A stretch of 29,479 bases of DNA from Minisyncoccota bacterium (lineage in GTDB: Bacteria; Patescibacteriota; Minisyncoccia; Phycocordibacterales; UBA6065): assembly GCA_035765615.1 (NCBI GenBank), contig DASTXF010000082.1, positions 1 to 29,479 of the forward strand. Direction: 5' to 3'. Position 1 is the first letter of the stretch; every line of letters starts with the position of its first letter. The notes below the pieces were generated by a model. That model did not search any database and was not told where the DNA came from. It was given only the letters and a program-made list of their open reading frames with translations. Of the stretch, positions 111 through 16,118 are shown piece by piece. The position numbers and the translations under genes are program-made.

Positions 111-111
111 T

Positions 112-1239
112 ATGGGAGAACATGTGCTTTCTAAGGAAGCCTACACGCGCGTCGCCGATTCTGTGCGAAGCGAAGGGGGCTCCGCCACCCGTCGCGGGGA
201 ACAGCGTCTCGAATCAGGCAAGGGGCTCGATCCTCTTGTCGATCCGAAAGGCTTCGGCGCCATCAGGCGTTCGATTTCCCGCAAGGAAAAGCGCGGAGAC
301 CACTTCGTGCTCACCGTCGGCACGGCAATGCTCCTCGAGACCCAATTCGACGGCACGAGTTCCATGCGGGACAACGTCGACCTGGCGTTCGGGTCGCTTC
401 CGAAGGGGTACCATCTCCTCAAGGAAGCGGACAATGCACCGCTCGCGCGCTACGATCTGCAGAACATCAACGGCGTCTTCAACGACATCGGTGACAGCGT
501 TCTGCTTACCCGCTCGCAAGCGGAAATGGACGAGAAGATCGCGGAACAGCTCCGCCTTCTCATTCCGTGCCGGGCCGGAGGCGACATTGAGGAAGATCCG
601 CATTACGGACTCTTCGGTGCGGCCTACCTCACGGCGGCCGAAATCGTGAAGTACGGCCTCAAGTCGTATCATTTCACGGCCACGGATGCGCCGGGGCGGC
701 ACGAGACCATCTGGTCCGAGCTGCGCCGCGTGTACGGAGACGACGTGCTCGATATCGTCGAGTCGAATGGCTTCCAGATGAAAAAGGGAAGTCTGCCATC
801 GACGACCGAAATCGTGGCTGAGCTTCTGAAACGGGCGCATGCGTTCGTGATCCAGATCGGCAGCGATTCGGATACGGCGCGGTTCTGGACGGAAATCTAC
901 GGCCCCGAACGGGTCGTGACCATTCCGACGGCGCGGCACATCGCGGAGACGGAAGCGGCCATTGTCGGCCTCACCGAAGGAACCCTCGACCTTCAAGGTC
1001 TCGAGGAATTCCTCGTTGAGGAAGGCAAGCTGTCGCATTCCTCGGCAGGCCTCATCAGAGAGGCTGTCGCGGGCATTCCGATTGGCGCGCAGGCGGCCTT
1101 GCCGAATTTCGGCAAGATCCCGCTCAAGGGCGCCAAGTTCGCCCAGAAGAGCGATCTCTGGCCGATCGACGCCAAAGAGCCGGCCGCTGCGAAACCCGCA
1201 GTCAAAGCCGGACCCAAGAAGGGAATGTGGCGCCCATAA
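112..1239 (+). CDS. vWA (von Willebrand A)-type domain protein, 375 aa
   Basis: MIDAS-like FDGTSSM (nt 346-366) follows a hydrophobic strand. Downstream blocks (DLQ..NGVFND, SQAEMDE, AGGD.E, KSYHFTATD) follow the pattern of vWA proteins I recall next to PurA-like genes. SD AAGGAG is present. Confidence 0.75.
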   Translation: MGEHVLSKEAYTRVADSVRSEGGSATRRGEQRLESGKGLDPLVDPKGFGAIRRSISRKEKRGDHFVLTVGTAMLLETQFDGTSSMRDNVDLAFGSLPKGYHLLKEADNAPLARYDLQNINGVFNDIGDSVLLTRSQAEMDEKIAEQLRLLIPCRAGGDIEEDPHYGLFGAAYLTAAEIVKYGLKSYHFTATDAPGRHETIWSELRRVYGDDVLDIVESNGFQMKKGSLPSTTEIVAELLKRAHAFVIQIGSDSDTARFWTEIYGPERVVTIPTARHIAETEAAIVGLTEGTLDLQGLEEFLVEEGKLSHSSAGLIREAVAGIPIGAQAALPNFGKIPLKGAKFAQKSDLWPIDAKEPAAAKPAVKAGPKKGMWRP

Positions 1240-1251
1240 GCGCCTTCCCGC

Positions 1252-1276
1252 AAGGGCGGCCCGAAAAGCCGCCCTT
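1252..1276 (+). terminator. Intercistronic GC stem-loop (weak terminator or mRNA stabiliser)
   Basis: AAGGGCGGC/GCCGCCCTT 9-bp stem with a 7-nt loop, followed by an imperfect T tract TCACTTT. Confidence 0.5.
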
Positions 1277-1287
1277 TCACTTTACCG

Positions 1288-2685
1288 ATGCACACCAAAC
1301 AGATATTCACCGTCACCGACCTCGGGGGAGGCGACGGAGGAAAGGGAGGAATCGTCCATAAGATCGCCATCGAGACAAATGCCCATACCGTTCTCAAGGT
1401 AGGCGGCGCCCAAGGCAGCCATGGCGTTCGCACTTCGCGCGGCGAAGCGTTTAACTTCAGCCAATGGGGCTGCGGAACATTCGAAGGCGTGCCAACCCAT
1501 GTCACGAGCCTCATGGTCATTGACCCTGTTGGCTTCGTGCATGAGGGCAACCGCCTGCGCTTCCAGCACGGCGTTCCGAACGCCTTCGACATGATCACTG
1601 TCGACGAAAACTGCCTCTGCGCGACGTCATTTCATGGCATCGCATCCCGCCTGCGCGAACTTGCGCGGAAAGGGAAGCAGAAAGGCACCGTCGGCGTGGG
1701 GATCGGCGAAGCGAAGCTCGATTCCGAGCTTCGTCCCGATCTCGCGATCTATGCGAAGGACCTCGGCAGTCCCGATTTATTTGATCGGATCGAAGCAGTC
1801 CGAAAGCACAAGCTTTCGGAGCTGTCGGAAATCATCGAAAATATCAGGGATCTCTGGCCGAACGATCTCAGCCTTGCCGAGCGTGAGATTGATCTCTTGA
1901 ACGACGAAGGCTATTCGCGATGGATCACAGCGAAGTTCCACGAAATGAAATCGAGGACTCGCATTGTTCCTGCTGAATACCTATCGCGCGAGATTCTTTC
2001 GAAAGACGGCACTGCTGTCGTCGAGAGTTCCCACGGCGTCCTCACCGACAAGTACTACGGATTCCATCCGTACGTATCACGGCTGCGGACATTGCCGGAA
2101 GCGACAGCGGGCCTCCTTCGGTCAGCCGGTTACGATGGTGAAATCGTGCGTCTCGGGGTAACCCGGGCGTATCAGATTCGCCACGGCGCCGGTCCTCTTG
2201 TGACCGAGTCTTCCGAGCTCACGGACAAATTGCTGCCCGGAAGCCACAAGAACGAGAATCGCTGGCAAGGGAAGGTTCGTGTCGGGCCGCTCGACTTCGT
2301 AGCCTTGCGCTACGCTGTCGATGTCTGCGGCGGACCGGGTGCGTTCGATGGTATCGCTGTCACTTGGTTCGACCAGATTCTTGTCGCAGGCGCGTGGCGC
2401 ATGTGCGACCGGTATCTGAAAACGAATGGTTCCGAGTTCTTTTCTTCCGATGGCCGAACGATTAATGTTCGGCGCGGCGAAGACGAAAGCCAGATCCGCC
2501 GTCAGGCGGAACTTGCGGAGGCGCTCTTCAAGTGCGCTCCTGCGATTGATTCGCACGAGCCTCTCGGAAAGGGTGACGAAGCAAAAGCGACCGAGCTTTG
2601 CTCCGCGGTCTTCGATGAAAAACTCGGAGTTCCGGTACGGATGATATCCTTCGGATCGACCGAGGATGGCAAGGTTTGTCTTTAG
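1288..2685 (+). CDS. Adenylosuccinate synthetase-like (divergent PurA family) protein, 465 aa
   Basis: P-loop DLGGGDGGKG (PurA: WGDEGKG), GGAQGSH (PurA: GxNAGH), GTVGVGIG, ESSHGVLTD..YGFHPY (PurA: EGAQGxxLD..xGxYPY), C-terminal ISFG. Confidence 0.85.
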   Translation: MHTKQIFTVTDLGGGDGGKGGIVHKIAIETNAHTVLKVGGAQGSHGVRTSRGEAFNFSQWGCGTFEGVPTHVTSLMVIDPVGFVHEGNRLRFQHGVPNAFDMITVDENCLCATSFHGIASRLRELARKGKQKGTVGVGIGEAKLDSELRPDLAIYAKDLGSPDLFDRIEAVRKHKLSELSEIIENIRDLWPNDLSLAEREIDLLNDEGYSRWITAKFHEMKSRTRIVPAEYLSREILSKDGTAVVESSHGVLTDKYYGFHPYVSRLRTLPEATAGLLRSAGYDGEIVRLGVTRAYQIRHGAGPLVTESSELTDKLLPGSHKNENRWQGKVRVGPLDFVALRYAVDVCGGPGAFDGIAVTWFDQILVAGAWRMCDRYLKTNGSEFFSSDGRTINVRRGEDESQIRRQAELAEALFKCAPAIDSHEPLGKGDEAKATELCSAVFDEKLGVPVRMISFGSTEDGKVCL

Positions 2686-2694
2686 GACGATTGC

Positions 2695-2726
2695 AAGGCG
2701 GAAACTCCACGTTTCCGCCTTTTTTC
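2695..2726 (+). terminator. Rho-independent terminator
   Basis: AAGGCGGAAAC/GTTTCCGCCTT stem plus T run, just after the stop at 2685. Confidence 0.85.
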
Positions 2727-2754
2727 TTGCCCGGTTTTTATCTCGCCTCGATCA

Positions 2755-2783
2755 TTGACGCTAGTGTGTCTTTATGGTAAAAG
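2755..2783 (+). promoter_or_regulatory. Probable sigma70 promoter for the 2857 gene
   Basis: TTGACG-17 nt-TAAAAG with TG extended -10. Confidence 0.45.
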
Positions 2784-2856
2784 GTGAAAAGAGCTTATTC
2801 TAAGCCCTCAAGCCCTTTGTCAGTGTCAGTGGATCCACAAACACAAGGAGTAAAAA

Positions 2857-4083
2857 ATGGCACCTGCAGAAAGCAGCCCCGCGGCACCCGCCGCGGCCCC
2901 CAATGCCTGGGAAGAACGCATCAAGGCGTTCTCCGAGGCAGTTTCGAAACCGGCCGATGACATCGTCACGGCCTTGAAGCCCCTGGTGGGCGAACCCGGA
3001 CCGGCGGCCCTCGCGGCCCTCTCCGATCCCACGGCGGTGACCGACACCGATCTCCAGGAAGCCCTCTCGAAGGGCGGCCCGGCGATCCCGCTCGGCATCC
3101 TCCGCAAGAACCTGTCCAAGCTCCGCGGCCCGCAGATCGCGGGCGAGCCGGCCACGGCCGAACGCGCGCACTCGTTTGATGCCTTGCCCTCGGTTCCCGA
3201 GGACGCGAGCTTCCTCGAGATGCTCAAGGTCGGCGGCAGTCTCAAGGTCGGCAAGGTCGAAGTGATCTCCGCCATGAAGGCGGCGATCGCCGAACAGCTC
3301 GGACTCTTCGACATTCCGACGACGCTCACCGAGAAGATGGAATCGTTCGCCGAGGCGCAGGAAGAGCCCGTCGGCCCGGACTTCTACACGCTCAGGAAGC
3401 TCATCGCTCGCCGGAGCTACGCCGAAGTCCTCGCTGTCCTCGACGTGCCGGGTGATTTCGTCACCGCCGGCCGCCGCTCGGCCTTCCTCGAGAAGCTCAA
3501 CACGCTTCTCTGGCCGGAACTCGCGAGTTTCCACCGCCAATTGGTGGGGTGGTCCGACTCGTGGAATACCGGCGCGGCGAATCCCGGCCTGGCCCTCACC
3601 ATGATGGCGATGGCGCAGTCGGGCAATCGCATGGCCATGCCACCTGGCATGCTCCAGCCGCCGGATACTTCGGCGGTTCGCGATTCGGCCGAGGCGCTCA
3701 TCAACACCATCAACAAGGTGTTCGCCGGCTTCGGCATTCCCGTCGCCCGCGCGCTCGCCTACGACGCGACCAAGATCAAGGAGGTGCTGGAGAACAACAA
3801 GCTCCCGCCTGCGATCGGCGCGACGAACAAGGACCAGATGCTCAAGATGCTCGGCATCGCGGTCGGCGCGGATTATGTCCGCACCGAGCGGAACATCACC
3901 CGGTACACCCTGGCGGCCATGGAGCTCAAGGACGTCCCGGGCGGCAACGAGGAATACGCCTATCTCGGCGCGCTCCTCCAGCTCGGTCTCACCATCCAGT
4001 GGGACAAGCTGCCGGGCGGCGTCGCCACCCGTGCCGGAATCGGCCGCGGGACGCGGAACGGCATTCACGAACGGGCCTTGTAG
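2857..4083 (+). CDS. Hypothetical alpha-helical protein, 408 aa, with a possible N-terminal SAM-like domain
   Basis: Long ORF with strongly biased G/C-ending codons, SD AAGGAG, and its own promoter and terminator. Segment LAALSD..VTDTDLQEAL…IPLGILRKNLSKLR resembles a SAM helix pattern. Confidence 0.85.
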   Translation: MAPAESSPAAPAAAPNAWEERIKAFSEAVSKPADDIVTALKPLVGEPGPAALAALSDPTAVTDTDLQEALSKGGPAIPLGILRKNLSKLRGPQIAGEPATAERAHSFDALPSVPEDASFLEMLKVGGSLKVGKVEVISAMKAAIAEQLGLFDIPTTLTEKMESFAEAQEEPVGPDFYTLRKLIARRSYAEVLAVLDVPGDFVTAGRRSAFLEKLNTLLWPELASFHRQLVGWSDSWNTGAANPGLALTMMAMAQSGNRMAMPPGMLQPPDTSAVRDSAEALINTINKVFAGFGIPVARALAYDATKIKEVLENNKLPPAIGATNKDQMLKMLGIAVGADYVRTERNITRYTLAAMELKDVPGGNEEYAYLGALLQLGLTIQWDKLPGGVATRAGIGRGTRNGIHERAL

Positions 4084-4104
4084 AAGGGTTCCCTCAAACA
4101 AAAC

Positions 4105-4135
4105 GCCGGACAACCAATGGTTGTCCGGCTTTTTT
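4105..4135 (+). terminator. Rho-independent terminator between convergent genes
   Basis: GCCGGACAACC/GGTTGTCCGGC 11-bp perfect stem plus TTTTTT; A-rich run upstream suggests it is bidirectional. Confidence 0.9.
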
Positions 4136-4139
4136 ATTC

Positions 4140-5912
4140 CTACCGCGAGATGTGAGGCAGGAAGACTTTCTTGAGGAACAGCTTCGAAGCAAGGCGGCGA
4201 TAGCCCGGATCCCAGAAGGATACGTTCGTCGCCAGAGCATCGGACTTCGGAACGAATTCCGACGTCCGTTCCGGGTTCGATCGGGCATACCCTTTGTGCA
4301 TAAGGCGATAGAGCAGGATGTCCCGCTCCATCTCGAGAAGCCAGACCGTCCGGGCGCTTTGCCCGAGGATCCGTTCAGAGCCGTTTGCGTAGAGGTACCG
4401 TTCGAGCACATCGGCGAAGAGCCTCCGCAGGACGCTTTCTTCGCCCGTCCAGATGCTTCCGAAGAGGACATGAACGAGCGTGCTGTCGCCCTGCGTGCGG
4501 TCAGGATCAGGGAAATCCCTGATCCTGAGGCCGCGCTCATCGCTTTCGAGCCAGAAGTCCACAGGCATTCCGATGCCAAGCGGCTCCAGGGTTTCCTTCA
4601 GGAGTTTCTGGATGGCAGCTCGATGCTCGTACGGCACGCCAGGCTTCACGAATATCGCCGTGTCGAGGTCGGCGGTGCGACTCCCGTATCCCTTGATGCG
4701 AGAACCGTACGCGATCGCGACGGGCAGAACATAAGCGCCCGCTTCGCTGTGGGCGATAGCTTGCGCGATCGATGAATACTCATCGACTTCGATTGAGCCA
4801 AGGGCCACGCCGCCTTCGAGATCGGGCATTTGGAGCCCGAGGGTCGAAAGGATGTCTGCCTCCGCGACGCCTCCGGCAACAAGCCGGAAAAACGCGCTTT
4901 CGGCAGCGTCGGCTGTTTCCTGGTCGGCATCCGTAAGGCACGCGGCGAGAAAGGGCTTGAACGAAGGGAAGAGGTCGGGAGCAGTCTCGGTGGCCATTTG
5001 CGCCACGAGAATGCCGATCATTGTCATATCGGCATCTTCCTGACCAAGGTTTTGCAGAAACGCGTCGGCCGAGATGGTTCCCGCCTTGAGAAGCAGGGAA
5101 ATATCTTTGGCAGCCCGGCGTATTGCCGCAGCCTTGTCGCGTTTCATTTCCCAGGCGATCCTCGTCTTCGGTTTCCCAAAATAGAGGTGAGAATCCTGGC
5201 TTTCCTTGATCTCTTCGCGCGCCAAGGCGAGCCGTTCAGAGAGCCGTGTCGAATCGTAATGCTCCGAAGGTTTCGGATCATTGCCGATGCAGTCGATGGC
5301 TTCCATCGCGCTTTTTCGGAGGGTGAGGTTGTCTGCCGAATCACGGATGAATTCCGCTTCTTCGCGCGAAATGAATCCTTTCGCGATAAGAATCGGAATG
5401 AAGTGCGCGGCTTTGACCACGCGGGGCAAGGGGCCCGTGCGCATTTCCGCCTCGGGTATGTCCCCGTCAACGAAATTGGCCCGGGTGTCCTCGCACGAAA
5501 GAAGCTCGTGCCACGCCCGCAGGTACGAATCGCGGAAACGGCTTGCCGCTGCGGCAAGTTTGATTTCCGTGGGTTTCCAGTCTCGCTCCGGGAGGAGCTC
5601 GAAGGGAAGGTAGAGGACAAGCCGGTCGCTCCAGGGTTCCGCGTGCAAGTAGAACGCGAGCCGCTGGTATGCGGAGGCGGCTTCGATCTCAGTTACGAGA
5701 CCTGCAGCGACAGCCTTTTGGAGGCTCATCGAGGGATTGGGAATCCGCCGAAAGAGCGAGTCGAGGTCGTCGATGGCCAATCTGCGCCATTCAGCGTATT
5801 TCCTGAGCCACGAGTCGTCGAGGACGCTTTTCCTCCAGAACGAATCTTGGCCGGGATTAAGAAGCGAGTCGACCGGGGGCCGAATCGCCAGAAAACATTC
5901 TGTTTGCTTCAT
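4140..5912 (-). CDS. Pol-beta superfamily nucleotidyltransferase domain protein, 590 aa, with a long helical N-terminal region
   Basis: YGSRIKGYGSRTADLDTAIF = hGS…DxD motif (nt 4662-4706); candidate third acid in PVDFW. Confidence 0.8.
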   Translation of the reverse strand: MKQTECFLAIRPPVDSLLNPGQDSFWRKSVLDDSWLRKYAEWRRLAIDDLDSLFRRIPNPSMSLQKAVAAGLVTEIEAASAYQRLAFYLHAEPWSDRLVLYLPFELLPERDWKPTEIKLAAAASRFRDSYLRAWHELLSCEDTRANFVDGDIPEAEMRTGPLPRVVKAAHFIPILIAKGFISREEAEFIRDSADNLTLRKSAMEAIDCIGNDPKPSEHYDSTRLSERLALAREEIKESQDSHLYFGKPKTRIAWEMKRDKAAAIRRAAKDISLLLKAGTISADAFLQNLGQEDADMTMIGILVAQMATETAPDLFPSFKPFLAACLTDADQETADAAESAFFRLVAGGVAEADILSTLGLQMPDLEGGVALGSIEVDEYSSIAQAIAHSEAGAYVLPVAIAYGSRIKGYGSRTADLDTAIFVKPGVPYEHRAAIQKLLKETLEPLGIGMPVDFWLESDERGLRIRDFPDPDRTQGDSTLVHVLFGSIWTGEESVLRRLFADVLERYLYANGSERILGQSARTVWLLEMERDILLYRLMHKGYARSNPERTSEFVPKSDALATNVSFWDPGYRRLASKLFLKKVFLPHISR

Positions 5913-6026
5913 GTGTAAAGGAATTCTTTCCCCTTTCTATAACGAATATTAAGCTATGTCAAATTATCTTTGGCTCGTGGAATTTTAACTTTCGACAGAC
6001 ATCTGCTATAGTCAAAACCCAATATT

Positions 6027-7124
6027 ATGTCTCTTTCAATCGGCATCGTCGGTCTCCCAAACGTAGGCAAATCAACCCTTTTCAACGCCCTTACTCGAAA
6101 GAGCGTTCTTGTGGCGAATTATCCGTTCGCAACTATCGATCCGTCAGTTGGCGTCGTCGCCGTCCCTGACCTGCGCCTGTGGAAGCTTTCGGAATTTTCG
6201 AAATCGAAAAAAACCGTTCCGGCTGCGGTTGAATTCGTTGATATTGCGGGCCTTGTGAAAGGCGCGGCCCAAGGCGAAGGCCTCGGCAACAAATTCCTTT
6301 CGAATATCCGCGAGACTGACGCTATTGCCGAAGTTGTGCGTATATTCGAGGACGACGATATCATTCATGTTTCGAACAAGATCGATCCGCTCCGCGACAT
6401 AGAAGTCATCAATATGGAGCTCATTTTCGCCGATCTCGATACGGTGACCAAACGCATGCAGAATATCGGCAAGGACGTGAAGGCTGGAAAAAAGGAAGCC
6501 GCGATCGAAATGAAGCTTTTGGAGCGTTTGAAGCCGTCGCTTGAAGCGGGGAATCTCGCGTCGACGGTTTCCGCAGACGAATTCGAAGCGCCGTTCTTGC
6601 GCCAACTCCATCTCCTCACTTCCAAGAAAATCCTTTATGTTTTGAATAAGAAAAGCGGCGGCAGGAACCTTGATGAAATGAAAGACGAGCGCTATACGAA
6701 ACTCATCGATTTCATTGAGAAGAGCAAGGCAGGCTACGTCATCGTCGATGCGGGCATCGAACACGATTTGAAAGACATGTCGGACGCAGAGAAAGCCGAA
6801 ATGCGCCAGGGGCTCGGCGGTATCGATAATGGCATCGATAACCTCATCAAGAAAAGCTACGAAATTCTCGGCCTCATTTCGTATTTCACGACGGGTGAAG
6901 ACGAAACGCGCGGTTGGACGATTCAGAAAGGCTGGACGGCGCCTCTTGCGGGCACGGCTATTCATACGGATTTCAAAGACAAATTCGTGCGCGCTGAAGT
7001 AATCGAGTGGGACAAGCTTCTTGCGGCCGGCTCATATGCTGCCGCACGCGAAAAAGGCCTCATCAGGACCGAAGGCAAGGAATACATCGTAAAAGACGGC
7101 GACGTGATCGAGTTCAAGATTTAA
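6027..7124 (+). CDS. ychF: Obg-family redox-regulated ATPase YchF
   Basis: GIVGLPNVGKSTLFNALT, ANYPFATIDP, DIAGLVKGA..GEGLGNKFL, C-terminal EGKEYIVKDGDVIEFK. Confidence 0.98.
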   Translation: MSLSIGIVGLPNVGKSTLFNALTRKSVLVANYPFATIDPSVGVVAVPDLRLWKLSEFSKSKKTVPAAVEFVDIAGLVKGAAQGEGLGNKFLSNIRETDAIAEVVRIFEDDDIIHVSNKIDPLRDIEVINMELIFADLDTVTKRMQNIGKDVKAGKKEAAIEMKLLERLKPSLEAGNLASTVSADEFEAPFLRQLHLLTSKKILYVLNKKSGGRNLDEMKDERYTKLIDFIEKSKAGYVIVDAGIEHDLKDMSDAEKAEMRQGLGGIDNGIDNLIKKSYEILGLISYFTTGEDETRGWTIQKGWTAPLAGTAIHTDFKDKFVRAEVIEWDKLLAAGSYAAAREKGLIRTEGKEYIVKDGDVIEFKI

Positions 7125-7133
7125 AAACGCTCC

Positions 7134-7604
7134 ATGAATTATTGGCTCGTAAAATCGGAAGGCGAGTGTTATTCGATCGACGATTTAAGACGAGATAAAC
7201 GCACTGCGTGGGAAGGCATCCGTAATTTCCAGGCGCGGAATTTTATGAAAGATGGCATGAAGATCGGAGACTTGGTGCTTTTCTATCATTCGATGTCGGA
7301 GCCTACGGGTGTTTATGGAATCGCACGGGTTCTGAGCGCGCCGCATATCGATGCATCCGCGCTTGATCCTAAGGACGAACATTACGATCCGAAGGCAGTG
7401 AAGTACCAAAAAGAAGGAAAGGATCCATTGTGGTCTTGCGTCGATCTTGAATTCGTCAGGAAATTCGATCGGCCGGTGTCGCTCGAAGAGATAAAAAGCA
7501 ATCGCGCTCTCGATGGCATCCTCGTTGCGCGCCGAGGACAAAGACTCTCCGTCATGCCAGTTATCGAGAGTCATTTCAAGACAATCGAGAAGATGGCCGG
7601 GTAA
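7134..7604 (+). CDS. EVE domain (PUA-like) protein
   Basis: MNYWLVKSE…WEGIRNFQARNFM..MKIGDLVLFYHS…RLSVMPV is the typical EVE pattern. Confidence 0.93.
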   Translation: MNYWLVKSEGECYSIDDLRRDKRTAWEGIRNFQARNFMKDGMKIGDLVLFYHSMSEPTGVYGIARVLSAPHIDASALDPKDEHYDPKAVKYQKEGKDPLWSCVDLEFVRKFDRPVSLEEIKSNRALDGILVARRGQRLSVMPVIESHFKTIEKMAG

Positions 7605-7605
7605 T

Positions 7606-7634
7606 TTGACGCGTATATCGAGTCGTGACAGTAT
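7606..7634 (+). promoter_or_regulatory. Probable promoter for the small ORF at 7700
   Basis: TTGACG-17 nt-CAGTAT with TG extension. Confidence 0.45.
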
Positions 7635-7699
7635 GCCTTCGGACTAGGATTCTTATCCTATTTGCTTGTCCGGCCTCATCCAAGTGAAAGGACTGTCAC

Positions 7700-7873
7700 A
7701 TGTTGGAACAGCTCAAGACAATGCTTAGACTCATGATCGCCGACGACGAAATGTTCGATCTCGCGGCCCGGGCGCTCAAGAAGACCCACGATGCGCTCGT
7801 GAAAAACGGGTTCACCGAGGAACAGGCGACGCTTATCGTCGCGCACCAGGGCATCGGCGGGAAGACGAGTTGA
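7700..7873 (+). CDS. Small hypothetical protein, 57 aa (MLEQLKTMLRLMIADDEMFDLAARALKKTHDALVKNGFTEEQATLIVAHQGIGGKTS); not in the supplied ORF track
   Basis: Hand-translated. SD AAAGGA lies 7 nt before ATG, codon usage is host-like, and the sequence is amphipathic-helical with a GFTEEQA motif. Confidence 0.75.
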   Translation: MLEQLKTMLRLMIADDEMFDLAARALKKTHDALVKNGFTEEQATLIVAHQGIGGKTS

Positions 7874-7880
7874 CGTCAGA

Positions 7881-7909
7881 TTGACAGAAATCGTCCCCTA
7901 GCGTAATCT
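7881..7909 (+). promoter_or_regulatory. Sigma70 promoter for the non-coding unit
   Basis: TTGACA (7881-7886), 17 nt, TAATCT (7904-7909). Confidence 0.7.
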
Positions 7910-7914
7910 CACCG

Positions 7915-8186
7915 CCAGAGCTTGTAGCTTCCATAGTAGTTCAAGTCGCTCCGTATAACGCGTCCGGAAGCGGAAGGCGGAAGCGGCGACCGGGTCGCAC
8001 AGGACCCGAGAAAGACAACACCTACTAGGTATCGCGAGCAGTCCCGCTAATGGCCTGCCGATGCATATAGCCCGGGACAATGTGCAAGCACTGTGCGTAG
8101 CTAAGGAATCGGTATACCTGGTAGTTGAAATGATACGTGGAAGGACAGTCTTCAGAGCCGGCGCAGGTTCGCTTGCGTCGTTCTCC
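7915..8186 (+). ncRNA. Unidentified structured non-coding RNA (~270 nt), partially RNase P RNA-like
   Basis: Bounded by a promoter and a terminator, with no convincing ORF. The ends pair (7928-7944 with 8125-8143), with several internal GC stems, two loop-to-distal complementarities and a UUCG hairpin at 8159-8180. Confidence 0.65.
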
Positions 8187-8218
8187 AAACCCTCGTGCTG
8201 GGATGCACGAGGGTTTTT
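8187..8218 (+). terminator. Rho-independent terminator
   Basis: AAACCCTCGTGC/GCACGAGGGTTT 12-bp perfect stem plus T tract. Confidence 0.9.
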
Positions 8219-8250
8219 GTTTTGTCCAAAATTTCTGGCGCAACAAATAA

Positions 8251-8276
8251 AAGCGCCCCTATGATGAGGGGCGCTT
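8251..8276 (-). terminator. Terminator of the 8259-8888 gene
   Basis: AAGCGCCCCT/AGGGGCGCTT 10-bp stem overlapping the stop codon, T-rich tail on the minus strand. Confidence 0.75.
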
Positions 8277-8888
8277 GAATGATTCTTGGAATACAGTCGA
8301 GGTGAAAGCGCTGCCATCTCTGATCCAGGCGAATGCCTGCTCGATGACGATTTCGTCCTTGAGCCCGGTGATTTCTTCTTGGGTGACTTTCTTCCAGATG
8401 GCCGTAAGAATAGCAGGATCTCTCCATGGCTCTCGGAGATTGGTCATCTCCTGGAGAGGGAGATTTACACCCCGGACTTTCGAGCGCCATTTTTCCGGCA
8501 CGTGGAAGGCGAGGGCGATCGACACTCGAACATGAGGAACGAATTCCCGGAGGATTTCGAGATCGGCCTCCCTGAGCGACGGCCTGCCTTGGTAACGGGC
8601 GAGATTTCTGACGAAGCCCGCGATACCTTCCGGTATAGCGCGCACGCCTCGATAGTGCTCAAGAAGGACAGTCACGACCTCCTTCGTTACTTCATCTCGG
8701 ACGACGTCGACAGACTGCTCGTCTCGTTCACTCCAGACAAGCCAGTGCCTTCGGTTGCTTCCCGGTTCCCGGCCGCCGTTTAAGGCGATGCCGGTCGAGA
8801 TGCAATGATCGATATCGATATCGTAGAGAGAGGTGCGGTGCATGAGCCGCTTACCTCCGTGGGCTGTAAAGCGGGTAACAATGTTCAT
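8259..8888 (-). CDS. Hypothetical protein, 209 aa
   Basis: Longest ORF here, with an AT-rich upstream region and its own terminator; no recognised motif. Confidence 0.75.
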   Translation of the reverse strand: MNIVTRFTAHGGKRLMHRTSLYDIDIDHCISTGIALNGGREPGSNRRHWLVWSERDEQSVDVVRDEVTKEVVTVLLEHYRGVRAIPEGIAGFVRNLARYQGRPSLREADLEILREFVPHVRVSIALAFHVPEKWRSKVRGVNLPLQEMTNLREPWRDPAILTAIWKKVTQEEITGLKDEIVIEQAFAWIRDGSAFTSTVFQESFKRPSS

Positions 8889-9018
8889 TTGTTCTTAAAA
8901 TACTTATAAAATATTGTCCGGTCAAATCAGTGGATAACTCGATTGCGCCATTATCTTGCCAAGTTGATATAATTGATGGGTAAAAGTCGCAAAATTATTA
9001 AGTTAATCTTTTGAGAAC

Positions 9019-9243
9019 ATGAAGGCACTTCACGTGATCGCTTTCATCCTCGTCATTGTCGGCGGCCTTAACTGGCTCCTCGTCGGCCTTGGCGGAGATT
9101 CTTGGAACGTTGTTGCCATGCTCGGTTCGTCCGTAGCTCGCATCGCTTACGTTCTCGTCGGTCTTTCTGCCCTCGTCCTTGTCTTTTCCCACAAGAAGGA
9201 CTGCAAGATGTGCGAGGCGAAGGCTTCCCAGCCAACGATGTAG
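9019..9243 (+). CDS. DUF378-family small membrane protein
   Basis: LVIVGGLNWLLVGL…RIAYVLVGLSAL; TGnTATAAT at 8965-8973 upstream. Confidence 0.9.
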   Translation: MKALHVIAFILVIVGGLNWLLVGLGGDSWNVVAMLGSSVARIAYVLVGLSALVLVFSHKKDCKMCEAKASQPTM

Positions 9244-9262
9244 TCCTCTGCGACTCATCTCC

Positions 9263-9288
9263 GAAAAGCCGGCTTCGGCCGGCTTTTC
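9263..9288 (+). terminator. Rho-independent terminator
   Basis: GAAAAGCCGGC-TTCG-GCCGGCTTTTC. Confidence 0.85.
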
Positions 9289-9331
9289 ATTTTTAGGCCT
9301 TGTGCGCTATATTCAATGCACCGAAAACCTC

Positions 9332-12271
9332 ATGAAAAAGTACGACCATAAGAAAATCGAGAAGAAATGGCAGGGGGAGTGGGAACGCTCTCATATATAT
9401 AAGACGGGCGCGCCTGCCGCCAAAAAGCCGAAATTCTATATTCTCGACATGTTCCCGTACCCGTCGGGCGAAGGTCTTCATGTCGGCCACCCGAAAGGCT
9501 ATATCGCGACCGACATCGTCTCGCGCATGAAGCGCATGCAGGGATACAACGTTCTCCATCCAATGGGCTTTGATGCATTCGGCCTGCCAGCAGAAAATTA
9601 TGCTCTCAAGACTAAAACCAATCCGCGCATTGCCGTCGCTAAAAACGTGAAGCGCTACAAGAAGCAGCTCGAAATCATCGGCTTTGACTATGACTGGTCG
9701 CGCGAAGTGAATACCACCGATCCGAAATACTACAAGTGGACGCAGTGGATTTTCTTGAAGCTTCTCGAGAAGGGTCTCGCATACGAATCGTACGAGCCGA
9801 TTAATTGGTGTCCGTCATGCAAAACCGGACTCGCGAATGAGGACGTTGTGGACGGCCGCTGCGAGCGCTGCAATACGCCTGTTGAAAAGAAGCCGATGCG
9901 CCAATGGGTCCTCCGCATCACCAAATACGCCGATCGTCTGCTTGAGGACCTCGATGCCAAGGAATCAGACGTGCCTCTTATAAAAAGAACAATAGGAAGC
10001 GACAAGGTGCGAGCCGATTTGCCGTTCCAGGAACGTCACGCCATCGTCTCGATCGTAAAACACTGGTCGGAAGACAAATACCTCTGCTCTCGTTATAAGA
10101 AAAATGATTGGCAGGGATTCATTACGGGCGGAGTTGAAGAAGGTGAAGACATTGGCAAGACCGCCGTGCGCGAGGTTGCTGAAGAGAGCGGATACGAGAG
10201 CGCACGATTCGTGCGCACATTCGGCCGCGTGGACTCGCAGTTCTATCATGAAGTGAAAAACGTCAATCGTTTCGCTCATTTTACGGGCGTCTATCTCGAA
10301 CTCGCTGACGGCAAACGAAACGAGCCTGCGGAGGAAGAAAAGGCTCTCGCCGATGTCGTGTGGCTTTCGAAAGAAGAGGTTGGGAAATTCCTCAATAGGG
10401 AAGACATGAAATATCTCTGGGATCTTTTTACGGGCAAGAAAAAGCAGGAAGGCGAAAAGCCGCTCCTCGAATGGCCGGAATCAATCAAGGAGGCGCAGCG
10501 AAACTGGATCGGCCGATCCGAAGGCGCGGAAATCAACTTTTCGCTTAAAGTTGGCGGAAAGGAACGTTCTGAAAAACTTACCGTATTTACAACTCGTCCG
10601 GACACGCTTTTCGGCGTGACGTATGTTGTTGTTGCTCCTGAACACGCATTTGTCACCGAGCTTTTAAAGCATAAAGAAAATCTTAAGAACCACGATGATG
10701 TCGTGAAATATGTTGCGTCAGCTCGCGTCATGACGGAAATCGAGCGCACTGATGCCAAGAAAGATAAAACCGGCGTGAAGCTTGAAGGCGTTGCCGCTGT
10801 GAATCCAGCAAACGGCGAAGAAGTACCTGTCTATGTTGCAGATTACGTCCTTGCTGATTACGGAACGGGCGCAGTTATGGCTGTGCCGGCGCATGACGAG
10901 CGCGACTATGCTTTCGCAAAGCGATTCGGGCTCAAGATCGTAGAAGTCGTCCTCGGCGGCGATGTTTCGAAGGAGGCATATATCGGATCAGGCAAGCTCG
11001 CAAACTCCGGCGAATTCTCGGGTTCTGATTCAGAATCGAGCAAAAAAGCCATTACCAAATCTGTCGGTGGTGAATGGGTCGTTAAATACAAGCTCAAGGA
11101 CTGGGTCTTTTCACGTCAGCGCTACTGGGGTGAGCCAATTCCGGTCCTTCACGATGGAACGGCTGTGATTCCTGTCTCAGAAAAAGATCTTCCGGTCGAA
11201 CTTCCGAATGTTAAGTCCTATGAGCCGACAGGTACCGGCGAATCGCCTCTTGCTGGCATTGCAAAGTGGGTCAATGTGAAGGTCGGCAGGGGTAAAGACG
11301 CGAAGATTGTTAAGCGCGAAACAAACACCATGCCGCAGTGGGCAGGTTCTTCGTGGTACTACCTCCGATTCATGGACCCAAAGAATCCGAAAAAGCTCGT
11401 CGATCCGAAAGCGGAAAAATACTGGAACCAGGTCGACTTCTATGTTGGCGGTGCGGAGCACGCCACCCGACATCTCATTTATGCTCGTTTCTGGCACAAG
11501 TTCCTTTATGACATTGGCGCCATTTCCACCAAGGAACCGTTCAAGAAACTCCAGTCGGTGGGTCTCATCATGGGCGAAGATGGCAGGAAAATGTCCAAGC
11601 GTTTCGGAAACGTAGTAAATCCGGATGATATCGTTTCGGTCTATGGCGCCGACACTCTCCGTGTCTACGAAATGTTCATGGGTCCGTTCGATCAGGCGAT
11701 TGCATGGTCGACTTCCGGCATCGTCGGCTCGCGTCGCTTCCTTGAGCGCGTCTGGAATATGCGGGAAAAGGTAGCCTCGAACGAGACTGAAGAGGCATCA
11801 TTCCCGAAGCAGGCCGATGTACTTCTTAACAAGACCATAAAGAAGGTCTCCGAAGACATGGCCGCGCTCCGCCACAACACTGCAGTTAGCTCGCTCATGA
11901 TCCTTTCGAACGAATTCGAAAAGGCGCCGTCTGTGCCGCGCGCCGCGTACGAGGCGCTCCTCAAGCTCCTTGCACCGCTCGCCCCGCACATGGCTGAAGA
12001 GCTTTGGAGAAGCCTCGGAAACAAAAAATCAATCCATGTTTCGACCTGGCCGAAGGCGGATGAGTCAAAGCTTGTCGAGGAATCGGTGACGATCGTTGTT
12101 CAGGTGAACGGTAAGGTTCGCGGCAGCTTCGAGGCGTCGAAAAACGCGGCGAAAGACGATCTTGAGAAGGCAGCCCTTGGTCTCGATGAGGTCAAAAAAT
12201 GGACAGAAGGGAAGGAGATCCGAAAGATCATCGTTGTTCCCGGAAAGCTCGTTTCGATCGTCGTAAGCTAG
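9332..12271 (+). CDS. leuS: Leucine--tRNA ligase (979 aa) with an inserted NUDIX domain
   Basis: MFPYPSGEGLHVGH (HIGH), KMSKR, editing-domain TTRPDTLFG, WVFSRQRYWGEPIP. True start is likely MKKYDH at 9332, since the ORF-track start at 9179 runs through the upstream gene and terminator. Confidence 0.97.
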   Translation: MKKYDHKKIEKKWQGEWERSHIYKTGAPAAKKPKFYILDMFPYPSGEGLHVGHPKGYIATDIVSRMKRMQGYNVLHPMGFDAFGLPAENYALKTKTNPRIAVAKNVKRYKKQLEIIGFDYDWSREVNTTDPKYYKWTQWIFLKLLEKGLAYESYEPINWCPSCKTGLANEDVVDGRCERCNTPVEKKPMRQWVLRITKYADRLLEDLDAKESDVPLIKRTIGSDKVRADLPFQERHAIVSIVKHWSEDKYLCSRYKKNDWQGFITGGVEEGEDIGKTAVREVAEESGYESARFVRTFGRVDSQFYHEVKNVNRFAHFTGVYLELADGKRNEPAEEEKALADVVWLSKEEVGKFLNREDMKYLWDLFTGKKKQEGEKPLLEWPESIKEAQRNWIGRSEGAEINFSLKVGGKERSEKLTVFTTRPDTLFGVTYVVVAPEHAFVTELLKHKENLKNHDDVVKYVASARVMTEIERTDAKKDKTGVKLEGVAAVNPANGEEVPVYVADYVLADYGTGAVMAVPAHDERDYAFAKRFGLKIVEVVLGGDVSKEAYIGSGKLANSGEFSGSDSESSKKAITKSVGGEWVVKYKLKDWVFSRQRYWGEPIPVLHDGTAVIPVSEKDLPVELPNVKSYEPTGTGESPLAGIAKWVNVKVGRGKDAKIVKRETNTMPQWAGSSWYYLRFMDPKNPKKLVDPKAEKYWNQVDFYVGGAEHATRHLIYARFWHKFLYDIGAISTKEPFKKLQSVGLIMGEDGRKMSKRFGNVVNPDDIVSVYGADTLRVYEMFMGPFDQAIAWSTSGIVGSRRFLERVWNMREKVASNETEEASFPKQADVLLNKTIKKVSEDMAALRHNTAVSSLMILSNEFEKAPSVPRAAYEALLKLLAPLAPHMAEELWRSLGNKKSIHVSTWPKADESKLVEESVTIVVQVNGKVRGSFEASKNAAKDDLEKAALGLDEVKKWTEGKEIRKIIVVPGKLVSIVVS

Positions 12272-12283
12272 GCTGCTATCCCC

Positions 12284-12324
12284 TTGACAAGGCCATTGAC
12301 AATGCACTAAGCTTGACTTAGTAT
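12284..12324 (+). promoter_or_regulatory. Tandem sigma70 promoters
   Basis: TTGACA(12296-12301)-17-TAGTAT(12319-12324) and TTGACA(12284-12289)-18-TAAGCT(12308-12313). Confidence 0.6.
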
Positions 12325-12393
12325 CAAACCAATGATAAAAAGGTAATTACCTTTATTACAAGTTTTTTAGCAAGCGAACGCGCATTTAAAATC

Positions 12394-13428
12394 ATGACTG
12401 CCACTCTCACCGTTAAGCCGAAGCAGGTCGTTAAGGCTCTTTTGAAGAGCCTTCCCGAACGCGCCCAGGAAGTGATCATCCGGCGCTACGGCCTCGGAAA
12501 GGATCCGAAGAAGATGACCCTTGAAGCCATCGGCAAGACGTATGGCATCACCCGCGAACGCGTTCGCCAGATCGAGAACTACGCCATCTCGAATATTCAG
12601 AAGTCGAAGGAATACGAGGCCCAGTCCGCGGCCTTCAAAGAACTCGAAACCATGATGCGCGACATGGGCGGCGTTCTTGCAGAGGAAGACCTCCTCGACG
12701 CAGTCTCTAAGGACCCTTCGACCCAGAATCATATCTATTTCCTCCTCGTTCTTGGCCGTGCCTTCAAGTGGCAGAAGGAAGACGAGCATTTCAAGCATCG
12801 CTGGCACGTCGACGAGGACACCTCAAAGAAAGTCGAGGACGCCCTCAAGAAGCTTTATAAGAATCTCAAGGATGACGATATCATCCCTGAATCCGAGATG
12901 ATTGATACTTTCCTCAATCACATCGAAGGATTGAATGACCAGTATCGAAACGACGAGATCCTCAAGCGTTGGCTCTCGCTCTCGAAGAAAGTCGGCAAGA
13001 ATCCTCTCGGTGAATGGGGCGTCGCTCACTCTCCGAACATCAAAGCTAAGGGCATGCGTGATTACGCATTCCTCGTGATCAGGAAGCACGGTTCTCCGAT
13101 CCACTTCCGCGAAGTCGCAAAGCAGATCGAGAAAATGTTCAATAAGAAGGCTCACGTTGCAACGACTCACAACGAGCTCATCAAAGACCCTCGTTTCGTG
13201 CTTGTCGGCCGCGGCCTCTACGCTCTCTCTGAGTGGGGCTACATGTCGGGCGTCGTCAAAGACGTGATCAAGAAGATCATCGATAAGAACGGCCCTCTCA
13301 CCAAGAAGGAAATCATCGATAAGGTTTTGAAAGAGCGTTACGTGAAGGAAAACACCATTCTCGTAAATCTCCAGAATCCGAAGTATTTCAAGAAAGACAA
13401 GGAAGGCCGGTACTCAGCAGTGGCATAA
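12394..13428 (+). CDS. Sigma70 region-4 HTH fused to C-terminal winged-HTH (HARE-HTH/RNAP delta-like) domains, 344 aa
   Basis: LPERAQEVIIRRYGL…TLEAIGKTYGITRERVRQIE (sigma r4); LVIRKHGSPIHFREVA…HNELIKDPRFVLVGRGLYALSEWG (wHTH). Confidence 0.85.
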   Translation: MTATLTVKPKQVVKALLKSLPERAQEVIIRRYGLGKDPKKMTLEAIGKTYGITRERVRQIENYAISNIQKSKEYEAQSAAFKELETMMRDMGGVLAEEDLLDAVSKDPSTQNHIYFLLVLGRAFKWQKEDEHFKHRWHVDEDTSKKVEDALKKLYKNLKDDDIIPESEMIDTFLNHIEGLNDQYRNDEILKRWLSLSKKVGKNPLGEWGVAHSPNIKAKGMRDYAFLVIRKHGSPIHFREVAKQIEKMFNKKAHVATTHNELIKDPRFVLVGRGLYALSEWGYMSGVVKDVIKKIIDKNGPLTKKEIIDKVLKERYVKENTILVNLQNPKYFKKDKEGRYSAVA

Positions 13429-13430
13429 AC

Positions 13431-13460
13431 AAAAAAGCAGGAGACCTCTCCTGCTTTTTT
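13431..13460. terminator. Bidirectional-type terminator
   Basis: AAAAAAGCAGGAG/CTCCTGCTTTTTT. Confidence 0.85.
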
Positions 13461-13475
13461 GCTATAATGATTCCC

Positions 13476-14705
13476 GTGAACATCTTCAGCGCAGTTCTAA
13501 GCTTCATAGTGAACATCGGGTTCCCTGAGACCGCTCGTTGGCTCGTTTTCTTTGCTGTCGTCTGGGTTCCGATCGTGATATTCGAATACGCCTGGGGCAT
13601 CTGGGTGCGCTACGTCCGCACGACCTGGATTTCAAAACAGGAAAAAATACTCCTTGAGATCAAGCTTCCGGCCGAGACCGTGAAGTCACCCCTTGCCATG
13701 GAACTCGTCCTCACCGGCCTCTACCAAACGGGCGGCGAAGGCACGCCGATCGATCGTTACTGGGAAGGAAAAGTCCGTCCGTGGTTCTCGCTTGAACTCG
13801 TTTCGATCGACGGCGAGATCCATTTCTATATTTGGACGTTCAAGAGCCAGCGAACGATCGTCGAGTCAAACATATATGCGCAATATCCAGGCGTTGAGAT
13901 CCATGATGCCAAGGACTATACCGAGGATGTATTCTTTGATCCGGAAAAATACGACCTCGCCGGATGCAGGTTTGAAGCGACTGCACCCGATCCTCTTCCA
14001 ATAAAAACCTACGTTGATTACGGTCTCGATAAGGACCCGAAAGAAGAATTTAAGATTGACCCAATGGCACCCCTTATTGAATTTATGGGAACGCTTAAGA
14101 AAGGCCACCAAGCATGGGTTCAGTTTGTCGTTCGCGCCCATACTCAGGAAAAGACGCCGTTCAACAACAAATATCCTGATAAGTGGAAGGAGGAAGCGAA
14201 AAAACTCGTTAAGGATATCCTCATGGAGAACGAGAAGGACAAGGAGGAAGGCGACCTCAATGCTGGCAAGCTGACACAGGGTCAGAAAGATAGGATATCG
14301 GGTATTGAGCGCGCCTTAACGAAGATTCCATTCGATGCGGGTGTCCGTATCATCTATATCGCCCCTAAAGACGTCTTCGACAAGGGAAATGGAGGCGGAC
14401 TTACCGGATCGTTCAAGCAGTTTAACGCACCGAACCTTAACGGTTTCAAGCCGGCCGAAGGCATGTCATTCGACTACAAGTGGGAAGACTGGTCGGGAAA
14501 GAAGCTTCTCCATCGTAAAATTGAGCACTTCCGCGCGTATTGCGAGCGTGGGTATTTCCATTACCCATTTATGAGGAAGTGGACTGTCTTGAATACCGAG
14601 GAGCTTGCCACGCTCTATCACTTCCCAGGCAGCGCAGTGAAGACGCCGACATTGAAGCGCATTCCGTCAAAGCGCGCCGACGCCCCTTCGAATCTTCCTA
14701 TATAA
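13476..14705 (+). CDS. Conserved CPR-type membrane-anchored protein (~409 aa) of unknown function
   Basis: N-terminal TM segment; SPLAMELVL, WFSLELVS.DGEIHFY, IYAQYPGVEI, LNTEELATLYHFP. Start placed at GTG 13476 because the ATG at 13467 overlaps the TATAAT box. Confidence 0.8.
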   Translation: MNIFSAVLSFIVNIGFPETARWLVFFAVVWVPIVIFEYAWGIWVRYVRTTWISKQEKILLEIKLPAETVKSPLAMELVLTGLYQTGGEGTPIDRYWEGKVRPWFSLELVSIDGEIHFYIWTFKSQRTIVESNIYAQYPGVEIHDAKDYTEDVFFDPEKYDLAGCRFEATAPDPLPIKTYVDYGLDKDPKEEFKIDPMAPLIEFMGTLKKGHQAWVQFVVRAHTQEKTPFNNKYPDKWKEEAKKLVKDILMENEKDKEEGDLNAGKLTQGQKDRISGIERALTKIPFDAGVRIIYIAPKDVFDKGNGGGLTGSFKQFNAPNLNGFKPAEGMSFDYKWEDWSGKKLLHRKIEHFRAYCERGYFHYPFMRKWTVLNTEELATLYHFPGSAVKTPTLKRIPSKRADAPSNLPI

Positions 14706-15746
14706 ATGGATTCTGGTTCACTGAAATACATCCAAGAGCCGCCGCATGAGGAGCTTCTTCCGCCGCCGCGCCGCTTCAGGCTCCCGGAAAAGCGACGACT
14801 CGCCCTCGTCGGCGCGGCGGTACTCATTCTTTTCGTCTTTTACCGGATATTTCTCGCTGCTCCTGCAGGGAATCAAGCAAATGAACAGACGATCGTAACC
14901 ATTCCAAGCGGGGAAGGGCTTACCGGCGCTGCGCGCATCCTTTCTTCGGCGCATCAAGTCCGATCGCAGTTTTTCCTCAAGGCGCTTGTCGTGCTCTTTG
15001 GTGGCCCTCGCGCGGTTCAGGCGGGCGATTACTATTTCGAGCGTCCCGAAAGCGCTATCTGGGTAGCCTGGAGACTTACCCACAGCGTTTATGAATTGGT
15101 AAATGTCCGCATCACCGTTCCCGAAGGCCTCAACTCGAAAGAAATCTCTCTTCTTTTTGCCAATCAGCCGCTCTTCACAAAATTTGATCAGATTGATTTC
15201 CTGAAAGCCGCTGCTCCCCATGAAGGATATCTTTTTCCTGACACGTATTTCTTCCCGCCGAACGTGACTGCCCGCGCTGTAGTCGACGCCATGCTTGCCA
15301 CATATCAGAAGCGCATTACCGATGTGAGATCCGATATTGCAGCTTTCGGCAGGCCAGAGGCCGATGTTATAAAAATGGCTTCCATTCTTGAAGAAGAAGG
15401 CAGAACGACCGAAACGAGGGAAATCATTGCTGGAATACTCTGGAAACGTCTTGATCAAGGCATGCCTCTCCAGGTTGATTCCGCGTTCGCTCTTGTGAAT
15501 GGAAAAAAGGCAAGTAAGGATATATCGTTATCGGACCTTGCCATTGATTCTCCGTACAATACGTACACACACAAAGGTCTGCCACCGACGGCGATATCGA
15601 ACCCGGGTCTCGATTCGATCCGTGCCGCCGTTCATCCGATCGCGACTAAATATTACTACTATCTTTCAGATGATCAGGGAAACATGCACTATGCCGTCAC
15701 GCTTGACGAACATGTGGCAAACAAACAGAAATATCTCTCGAATTAA
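14706..15746 (+). CDS. mltG: Endolytic transglycosylase MltG (YceG family)
   Basis: N-terminal TM, ITVPEG, EGYLFPDTY, MASILEEE (catalytic Glu), MPLQVD, SPYNTY…GLPPTAISNPG. Confidence 0.95.
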   Translation: MDSGSLKYIQEPPHEELLPPPRRFRLPEKRRLALVGAAVLILFVFYRIFLAAPAGNQANEQTIVTIPSGEGLTGAARILSSAHQVRSQFFLKALVVLFGGPRAVQAGDYYFERPESAIWVAWRLTHSVYELVNVRITVPEGLNSKEISLLFANQPLFTKFDQIDFLKAAAPHEGYLFPDTYFFPPNVTARAVVDAMLATYQKRITDVRSDIAAFGRPEADVIKMASILEEEGRTTETREIIAGILWKRLDQGMPLQVDSAFALVNGKKASKDISLSDLAIDSPYNTYTHKGLPPTAISNPGLDSIRAAVHPIATKYYYYLSDDQGNMHYAVTLDEHVANKQKYLSN

Positions 15747-15775
15747 AAAAGCCGCCTCATTCCGAGGCGGCTTTT
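15745..15775. terminator. Bidirectional terminator between convergent genes
   Basis: AAAAGCCGCCTC/GAGGCGGCTTTT. Confidence 0.85.
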
Positions 15776-15939
15776 GCAAAAACGATGGAGCACTGGATCC
15801 ACGGCTGCTTTTCCGGCATTTGGCCGGTTGAGGCAGTGTAGAGCTTGTCTGCTTCCAAGATGTTTTCGGCATCGCACTCGAATGCGGTTGCCGGTGGTGC
15901 GGGGTGCTTCGAGTGGTCTTTGTATGTGTAGTGGTTCAT
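15757..15939 (-). CDS. Small hypothetical protein, 60 aa (MNHYTYKDHSKHP…FAKAASE)
   Basis: ATG overlaps the upstream stop (ATGA), implying translational coupling; ends inside the terminator. Confidence 0.55.
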   Translation of the reverse strand: MNHYTYKDHSKHPAPPATAFECDAENILEADKLYTASTGQMPEKQPWIQCSIVFAKAASE

Positions 15940-16118
15940 TGCCACATTCTCCGTGCTTTTCTGTTGAGGAGTACGACATCGAGTATGTAATAGAGCGCGG
16001 GACAGCCAAGGCCTATGCCAAGGGCAGTCCATGCTCCAAAGAAGGCGCATCGGTGACCGATGAATGCTGAAGCGCCGCATAAAACGATGACGTAGAGGAG
16101 TGTGAAGTGCTTTTTCAT
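15936..16118 (-). CDS. Small two-TM membrane protein, 60 aa
   Basis: MKK start, two hydrophobic segments, basic C-terminal tail. Confidence 0.65.
   Translation of the reverse strand: MKKHFTLLYVIVLCGASAFIGHRCAFFGAWTALGIGLGCPALYYILDVVLLNRKARRMWQ

Follow-up and report, generated by a model that had tools for sequence, protein, structure and literature searches.

The stretch at positions 7881-8226, plus strand, of a contig from a Minisyncoccota bacterium may yield a functional RNA, and we tentatively favour the reading that it forms a lineage-restricted non-coding transcription unit; its transcription, its promoter and any function are things that we infer. Positions are those of the window, by which we mean the whole 29,479-nt stretch of DNA analysed (contig C82 of a 754-kb soil-metagenome assembly of 116 contigs, 88.6% complete). 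The stretch lies directly after P0002, a plus-strand gene for a 57-aa protein, and faces P0001, a convergent gene for a 209-aa protein. The reading is carried by the non-coding status of the stretch, by the odd distance of its terminator from any gene, by its strand-specific foldability and by a sharp-edged conserved block in a second population.

All open reading frames (ORFs) within 7874-8258 had negative codon-usage scores, while P0002, P0001 and the DUF378 gene further downstream scored positive. These scores, together with the lack of protein relatives for an antisense ORF discussed below, upheld the claim of a preliminary description of this DNA that the stretch is non-coding. Two signals bound it:

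7881-7909, plus strand: putative sigma-70-type promoter, with a -35 box TTGACA at 7881-7886, a 17-nt spacer and a weak -10 box TAATCT at 7904-7909
8187-8226, plus strand only: intrinsic terminator (hairpin 8187-8216), with a perfect 12-bp stem, a 6-nt loop and the T-rich tail TTGTTTTG

The terminator hairpin is the strongest on the plus strand within the first 20 kb of the window. It lies 314 nt from the nearest upstream plus-strand stop codon (7873), with no other terminator in between, whereas the six other strong terminators in window 1-20000 (stem of at least 10 bp) lie 0-22 nt from the stop codons of their genes. The median intergenic gap in the genome is ∼55 nt, a value from a crude codon-score gene caller whose genome-wide gap list is contaminated by missed genes and unfit as a background. 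Non-coding sequence ending in a Rho-independent terminator is what a test for small RNA (sRNA) genes looks for, and it is what was found here. The stem is perfect, strong and acts one way, as expected from the earlier claim that the RNA has its own 12-bp terminator, and it opposes the one-way terminator of P0001 on the minus strand. Because the terminator and then the convergent P0001 follow, the stretch is not a riboswitch or other leader, a point on which the preliminary description was also right. Since no terminator intervenes over the 314 nt, read-through from P0002 is very likely, which would make the stretch, at the least, the tail of the P0002 mRNA.

The z-score for folding was -3.6 for the plus strand including the terminator and -2.4 for the plus-strand core 7920-8150; against dinucleotide shuffles, it was -2.9 for 7917-8185 and -3.2 for 7928-8143 on the same strand. 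For the minus strand the value was +0.2. Foldability is thus strand-asymmetric. The RNase P RNA and the transfer-messenger RNA (tmRNA) of the same genome gave z-scores of -3.2 and -2.0, respectively. The predicted parts of the fold are as follows:

7928-8143, plus strand: core multi-helix body closed by helix P1 (7928-7934/8137-8143, 7936-7938/8134-8136 and 7941-7943/8131-8133; pair probability 0.81-0.99)
7945-7987, plus strand: extended hairpin P2 (7945-7954/7977-7987, with an apical part 7959-7961/7970-7972; pair probability 0.91)
7991-8008, plus strand: hairpin P3, CGGGTC/GACCCG with the 6-nt loop GCACAG, perfectly paired (pair probability 0.98-1.0)
8019-8127, plus strand: long-range helix P4 around the P5/P6 domain (8022-8032/8114-8124 and 8019-8020/8126-8127; pair probability 0.94-1.0)
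8041-8098, plus strand: inner domain of P5 (8041-8046/8073-8078, with an apical part 8052-8072) and P6 (8080-8086/8092-8098), of uncertain structure
8154-8184, plus strand: 3' hairpin with a UUCG loop (8154-8158/8180-8184 and 8160-8167/8172-8179; pair probability 0.97-1.0)

Between 92 and 99 of the 99 pairs of the minimum free-energy (MFE) structure were kept when the stretch was folded inside longer transcripts. Pair probabilities are near 1 in P1, P3, P4 and the 3' hairpin, and fall to 0.49-0.89 in P5 and 0.65-0.73 in P6. Every complementarity named in the preliminary description was located where it had been placed. The pairings labelled H3, H5 and PK1 and the terminator stem are perfect complements, H2, PK2 and the UUCG hairpin include G-U pairs, and the closing helix contains one bulge and one internal loop. 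For H2 the described complement exists, but pairing to 7985-7990 is a minor register, with a probability of 0.09 against 0.91 for 7945-7950/7982-7987. The 11-bp part of P4 (8022-8032/8114-8124), present in both the MFE structure and the ensemble, had been overlooked. Separately, 11 nt from the 3' end of the P0002 coding sequence (7851-7861, GCATCGGCGGG) are complementary at 10 of 11 positions to the apex of the inner domain (8054-8064, CCTGCCGATGC), which could be chance or could be a cis interaction in a read-through transcript.

Sequence variation was surveyed by aligning Logan contigs of four sequencing runs to 7000-9300, with X1 being the source run and X2-X4 coming from a second study. 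The source run covered 7000-8021 and 8182-9300 with zero differences. Its contigs, at a depth of only ∼7x, leave a break over 8022-8181, within the RNA stretch, which may be a coverage gap instead of strain variation. Runs X2-X4 contain one variant, ∼93% identical to the stretch, whose homology block there spans 7881-8198 only. The aligned segments of the variant differ from the window as follows:

7000-7406 (end of ychF and start of the EVE-domain gene): 30 differences and 1 gap in 407 nt
7881-8080: 11 differences in 200 nt
7977-8198: 17 differences and 1 gap in 222 nt
8929-9213: 2 differences in 285 nt

The edges of the block are sharp. It starts exactly at the first base of the -35 box (7881) and runs into the terminator (8198), and the variant flanks are unlike the window over 252 and 57 nt upstream of 7881 and over 53 nt beyond 8198. 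Another variant contig carries 153 nt after 7590 that also could not be aligned to the window; P0002 is thus either replaced in the variant or diverged beyond 80%. Within the block, divergence is 5.5% in the 5' 200 nt and ∼10% in the last 118 nt. In the EVE gene, over 7134-7406, 13 of the 17 listed differences fall at third codon positions, which amounts to at least 14% of third positions. Thus, with 5.5% in its 5' 200 nt against at least 14% at those positions, change in the block is slower than at near-neutral sites. In this neighbourhood the identity of the variant jumps, within a few hundred bases, between ∼92%, 99% and unalignable.

About 7-11 of the variant differences are unlisted, and both the mapping onto the fold and the rebuilding of the variant rest on the listed ones only. 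Listed changes at 7962, 7976, 7989, 8047 and 8048 are at unpaired positions. A8020G and A8024G in P4 and A8086G in P6 keep pairing as G-U, which is possible only on the plus strand, and the 30 nt at 7990-8019, comprising the P3 loop and its surroundings, carry no listed change. The partly rebuilt variant folded at -103.7 kcal/mol, compared with -101.9 kcal/mol for the original, with P1-P4 and the 3' hairpin kept and P5/P6 refolded.

Several results weigh against a functional RNA, the first being its distribution. BLAST found no homologue of the stretch in 60 relatives (all 21 of the 21 other congeneric species and 39 more), while the same search detected the RNase P RNA of this genome in 20 of the 21 congeners (E 1e-12 to 1e-86). 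A covariance model built from the core sequence and the predicted structure found only itself among 101 genomes (100 relatives), and found nothing at 11 syntenic or phage loci with filters off. Contigs of EVE homologues (best 84% identity) contained no similar RNA. Phage and plasmid collections yielded 34 nt of chance similarity to trbI of a Xanthomonas and nothing else, pattern scans of metagenome contigs and viral contigs gave no match, and a scan of genome contigs gave a single Rhodobacter match, about the chance expectation for 20 specified bases, with no wider similarity. Homologues with compensatory changes, whose lack would by the terms of the preliminary description count as a refutation, were found neither among the 100 relatives nor in the collections scanned, the only relative being the one ∼93% variant. 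Its listed differences contain no covarying pairs and no compensatory double change, and are no rarer at paired than at unpaired positions; C8022G at the end of P4, where its partner is 8124, and 8081del, T8083A and G8084C in P6, break pairs unless unlisted changes compensate.

The fold itself matches that of a real RNA in quality, yet it is statistically unexceptional, because among 100 random 269-nt segments of the genome (mean z -0.78, standard deviation 1.7) 9% reach -3 or lower. The neighbourhood is also a mosaic, 8929-9213 being 99% identical in the variant. Since such identity points to mosaic recombination, the block may owe its lower divergence to past recombination, not to selection. 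Finally, the promoter is poor. TTGACA-17-TAATCT is present as described earlier, and its -35 box is perfect, but the -10 box agrees with TATAAT at only 3 of 6 positions, for which reason a promoter scan made no call at 7881-7909. The window contains 6 copies of the extended -10 motif TGnTATAnT (plus strand, at 6004, 8965, 13460, 18474, 20819 and 25746), where 0.8 would be expected, and a gene starts shortly after each of them, so that promoters of this genome seem, as far as the motif counts go, to be dominated by the -10 element. The -10 box here is unlike this form, and no TGnTATAnT precedes the RNA stretch. A look through the listed sequencing runs for RNA reads of the stretch turned up none.

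The strongest alternative is that the stretch is a non-functional spacer, either intergenic filler that evolves fast or what is left of a lost gene, situated in a recombination hot spot and transcribed at most as an over-long 3' untranslated region (3'UTR) of P0002, with helices to be expected of any 300 nt of such composition. We consider this quite possible, though we lean against it. Its absence from the 21 other congeneric species, the share of random segments that reach its z-score, loop complementarities at chance level (see below), the weak promoter, and the helix-breaking changes and 1-nt deletion of the variant all speak for a spacer, as does the changing gene content of the locus among congeners. 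In the window, the genes of the locus are:

6027-7124, plus strand: ychF
7134-7604, plus strand: gene for an EVE-domain protein
7700-7873, plus strand: P0002, 57-aa gene with a coding-like codon score (+0.34 per codon)
8259-8888, minus strand: P0001, 209-aa gene, convergent, with its own terminator at 8276-8251
9019-9243, plus strand: DUF378 gene
9179-12271, plus strand: leuS, with a NUDIX insert

In congener G018 a P0002 homologue (71% identical) has a terminator 25 nt past its stop codon, followed by the DUF378 gene and leuS, and the RNA is absent. In congeners G007 and G019, P0001 homologues (41-44% identical) occupy the same locus and are directly convergent on ychF, again with no RNA, and a further relative, whose EVE protein is 84% identical, carries a different pair of small ORFs there, along with a gap of 368 nt. 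Across the interval from ychF/EVE to DUF378/leuS (window 7600-9000; loci L041, L042, L044 and L051), congeners differ in which of P0001, P0002, the EVE gene and other small ORFs they carry, and the interval looks like a recombination hot spot. A spacer would nevertheless leave several features to be accounted for. A dedicated strong terminator 314 nt past any stop codon is odd, given a median gap of ∼55 nt (crude gene call). The foldability is strongly strand-asymmetric, and the block is ∼93% conserved, ends sharply at both the -35 box and the terminator, and lies between unalignable flanks. No trace of a decayed protein was found either: tblastn with the DUF378 protein of G018 gave nothing in the stretch.

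A second alternative goes further than a regulatory RNA and closer to the preliminary description, which proposed an independent RNA of ∼270 nt with a double pseudoknot. The stretch could represent a new class of tertiary-structured RNA in a narrow soil lineage of the candidate phyla radiation (CPR), in which a pseudoknot of the P3 loop locks a compact core with a catalytic, ligand-binding or protein-scaffolding role. The complementarities exist: the P3 loop (7997-8002) complements 8091-8096 (PK1), and 8057-8062 complements 8108-8113 (PK2). None of the listed variant changes falls in the P3 loop or the 30 nt around it, and P6, the competitor of PK1, is disrupted in the variant, which is compatible with PK1 as a real pairing. 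However, at least one loop-to-distal complementarity of at least 6 nt was present in 33% of shuffles with Watson-Crick pairs only, and at least two in 56% with G-U pairs allowed, so the double pseudoknot is no more than chance would provide. PK2 is also excluded by P4, an 11-bp helix with a probability of about 1, its own probability being 0.05-0.07. The description of helices abutting one another as in tertiary-structured RNAs is unsupported for the same reasons, with the knots at chance level and one of them in conflict with P4. Given also the lack of covariation and of a wider family, we regard a new class as improbable; if it were true, it would have arisen or been acquired very recently, making it a rare young complex RNA. 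What stands of the independent RNA is a non-coding stretch between convergent units with its own terminator, while its double-pseudoknot form is unsupported.

The sharp boundaries and patchy distribution of the block might also suggest the RNA of a mobile or defence element, such as a retron-like msr/msd, a miniature inverted-repeat transposable element (MITE), an integration scar with a tRNA or tmRNA fragment, or an RNA antitoxin. P0002 upstream has a weak match (E = 2e-6) to phrog_26408, a phage protein family whose function is unknown, and has relatives, 38-48% identical, on five IMG/VR viral contigs. In an atlas search, residues 2-105 of P0001, at its N-terminus, showed structural similarity, below the threshold, to BrnT, DUF4258 and RelE-like toxin folds. 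However, P0001 homologues exist without the RNA, its AlphaFold model is poor (predicted local distance difference test score, pLDDT, 58.8) with no Foldseek match in the PDB, and it belongs to no family in Pfam, NCBIfam or PADLOC. The neighbouring genes include no reverse transcriptase, transposase or integrase, the stretch is single-copy in the genome, and the block ends have no terminal inverted or direct repeats. ARAGORN found no genes in the window, hence no tRNA or tmRNA similarity, and the phage, plasmid and viral collections were without a match. A retron non-coding RNA was rejected on its neighbours (YchF, the EVE protein, the 57-aa and 209-aa proteins, DUF378 and leucyl-tRNA synthetase, LeuRS), which include no reverse transcriptase, and a MITE or insertion sequence remnant on the single copy and the lack of inverted repeats. 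A mobile-element origin is thus quite improbable.

A protein-coding gene is more improbable again. A 139-codon frame does run uninterrupted over the whole stretch on the minus strand, but its codon score is negative (-0.21 per codon), it crosses two terminator hairpins and overlaps P0001 by 59 nt. A word search found no homologue of the 139-aa product, and an exhaustive HMMER search of 1.8 billion representatives returned only a 6222-aa protein, as a biased hit in which no stretch was matched. The plus-strand ORFs, of 27-67 aa, either score negatively or run across the terminator, and the variant has a 1-nt deletion at 8081.

Membership, in divergent form, of a known family (minimal RNase P-like RNA, signal recognition particle (SRP) RNA, tmRNA, 6S RNA, riboswitches or ribozymes) is close to refuted. 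In its favour are a short AAGAC/GUCUU complementarity and the string GAGAAAGAC, faintly like the CR-I region of RNase P RNA. The terminator and convergent gene downstream leave no place for a leader. Rfam 15 gave no matches at gathering thresholds over the whole window and, at E ≤ 10, chance hits to terminators only, plus isrB at 18.3 bits (threshold 35), in agreement with the earlier statement that no known family could be assigned. For RNase P RNA, no family matched the stretch at E ≤ 10 and a canonical RNaseP_bact_a (127.6 bits) lies at C87:771-1120; the tmRNA of the genome (96.3 bits) is at C18:1015-1402. The SRP RNA models RF00169 and RF01854 gave no hit in the stretch. That no SRP RNA was detected in the genome could have favoured this identity, but its partner proteins were not found either: neither the Ffh M domain nor an SRP54-type GTPase (Ffh/FtsY; SRP_SPB) was detected, and a motif scan agreed. 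RF00169 and the Ffh M domain were not found in 30 relatives; the search for the SRP54 GTPase covered 60 high-quality genomes from the order and that for the Ffh M domain 80 genomes across the phylum, with nothing found in either case, while controls in model genomes were positive. Since Ffh and FtsY were not found and many CPR bacteria are reported to lack SRP subunits (PMC8080830), an SRP RNA is not to be expected here, and its absence is already known.

Other features of the contig bear less directly on the stretch. Relatives of the EVE-domain protein are 80-84% identical, some of them labelled Pacebacteria, Parcubacteria, Taylorbacteria or Patescibacteria. These names and the size of 754 kb show a genome of CPR (Patescibacteria) type, as the preliminary description had supposed. 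P0001 and the DUF378 protein have no record beyond the contig of the source sample. In LeuRS, a NUDIX domain (residues 301-408) sits before the editing domain, and the contig record of the source sample shows the same architecture. The G+C content is ∼0.58-0.66 in window 1-6000 and then ∼0.50-0.52 over 6000-29479, and the left end of the contig may be a compositional island.

Returning to the reading of a functional RNA from 7881-8226, the product would be an RNA of ∼300 nt, roughly 7917-8222, ending at the terminator hairpin 8187-8216. It could start at its own putative promoter, 7 nt past the P0002 stop codon, or it could be the tail of the P0002 mRNA, and both routes would give a 3'UTR-type sRNA using the terminator of the mRNA. 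Its body would be closed by P1 and contain the P2 and P3 hairpins and P4 around a less certain inner domain, with the UUCG hairpin before the terminator. The most likely role would be that of a regulatory sRNA acting through exposed loops or by protein binding, although each particular mechanism, for instance base-pairing by the P3 loop, is unlikely at best.

3'UTR-derived sRNAs with an internal promoter that share the terminator of the mRNA are known, for example DapZ and MicL of enterobacteria, most being 50-150 nt. The stretch resembles them in lying directly after a stop codon, with a promoter-like site 7 nt on and one terminator for both units, and in being non-coding with stable hairpins before the terminator. 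It differs from them in being ∼300 nt and multi-helix, with conservation limited to one strain-level variant, and we know of no Hfq-type context in CPR bacteria. A second comparison is with raiA, ROOL, GOLLD, OLE and HEARO, large non-coding RNAs of unknown function that came from long intergenic regions and that have many covarying homologues and entries in Rfam. Like these, the stretch is non-coding and unusually long for a gap in a compact genome, folds stably into several helices on one strand only, and ends at a terminator of its own; unlike these, it matches none in Rfam and forms no family. Bacterial RNase P RNA shares with it a z-score of -3.2 and a multi-helix body closed by a terminal helix, but there is no covariance-model similarity, and RNase P RNA is kept in 20 of 21 congeners while the stretch is kept in none.

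At present the stretch has value as a candidate lead for metatranscriptomics, not as a discovery. If real, it would be one more orphan bacterial sRNA, of a known kind, in an under-studied phylum. CPR bacteria (Patescibacteria) have very small, compact genomes, from which few non-coding RNAs other than the housekeeping ones are known. A structured, strain-restricted RNA of 300 nt would, if the reading is true, mark the variable ychF-leuS hot spot, and would mean that reduced genomes still gain and keep new regulatory RNAs.

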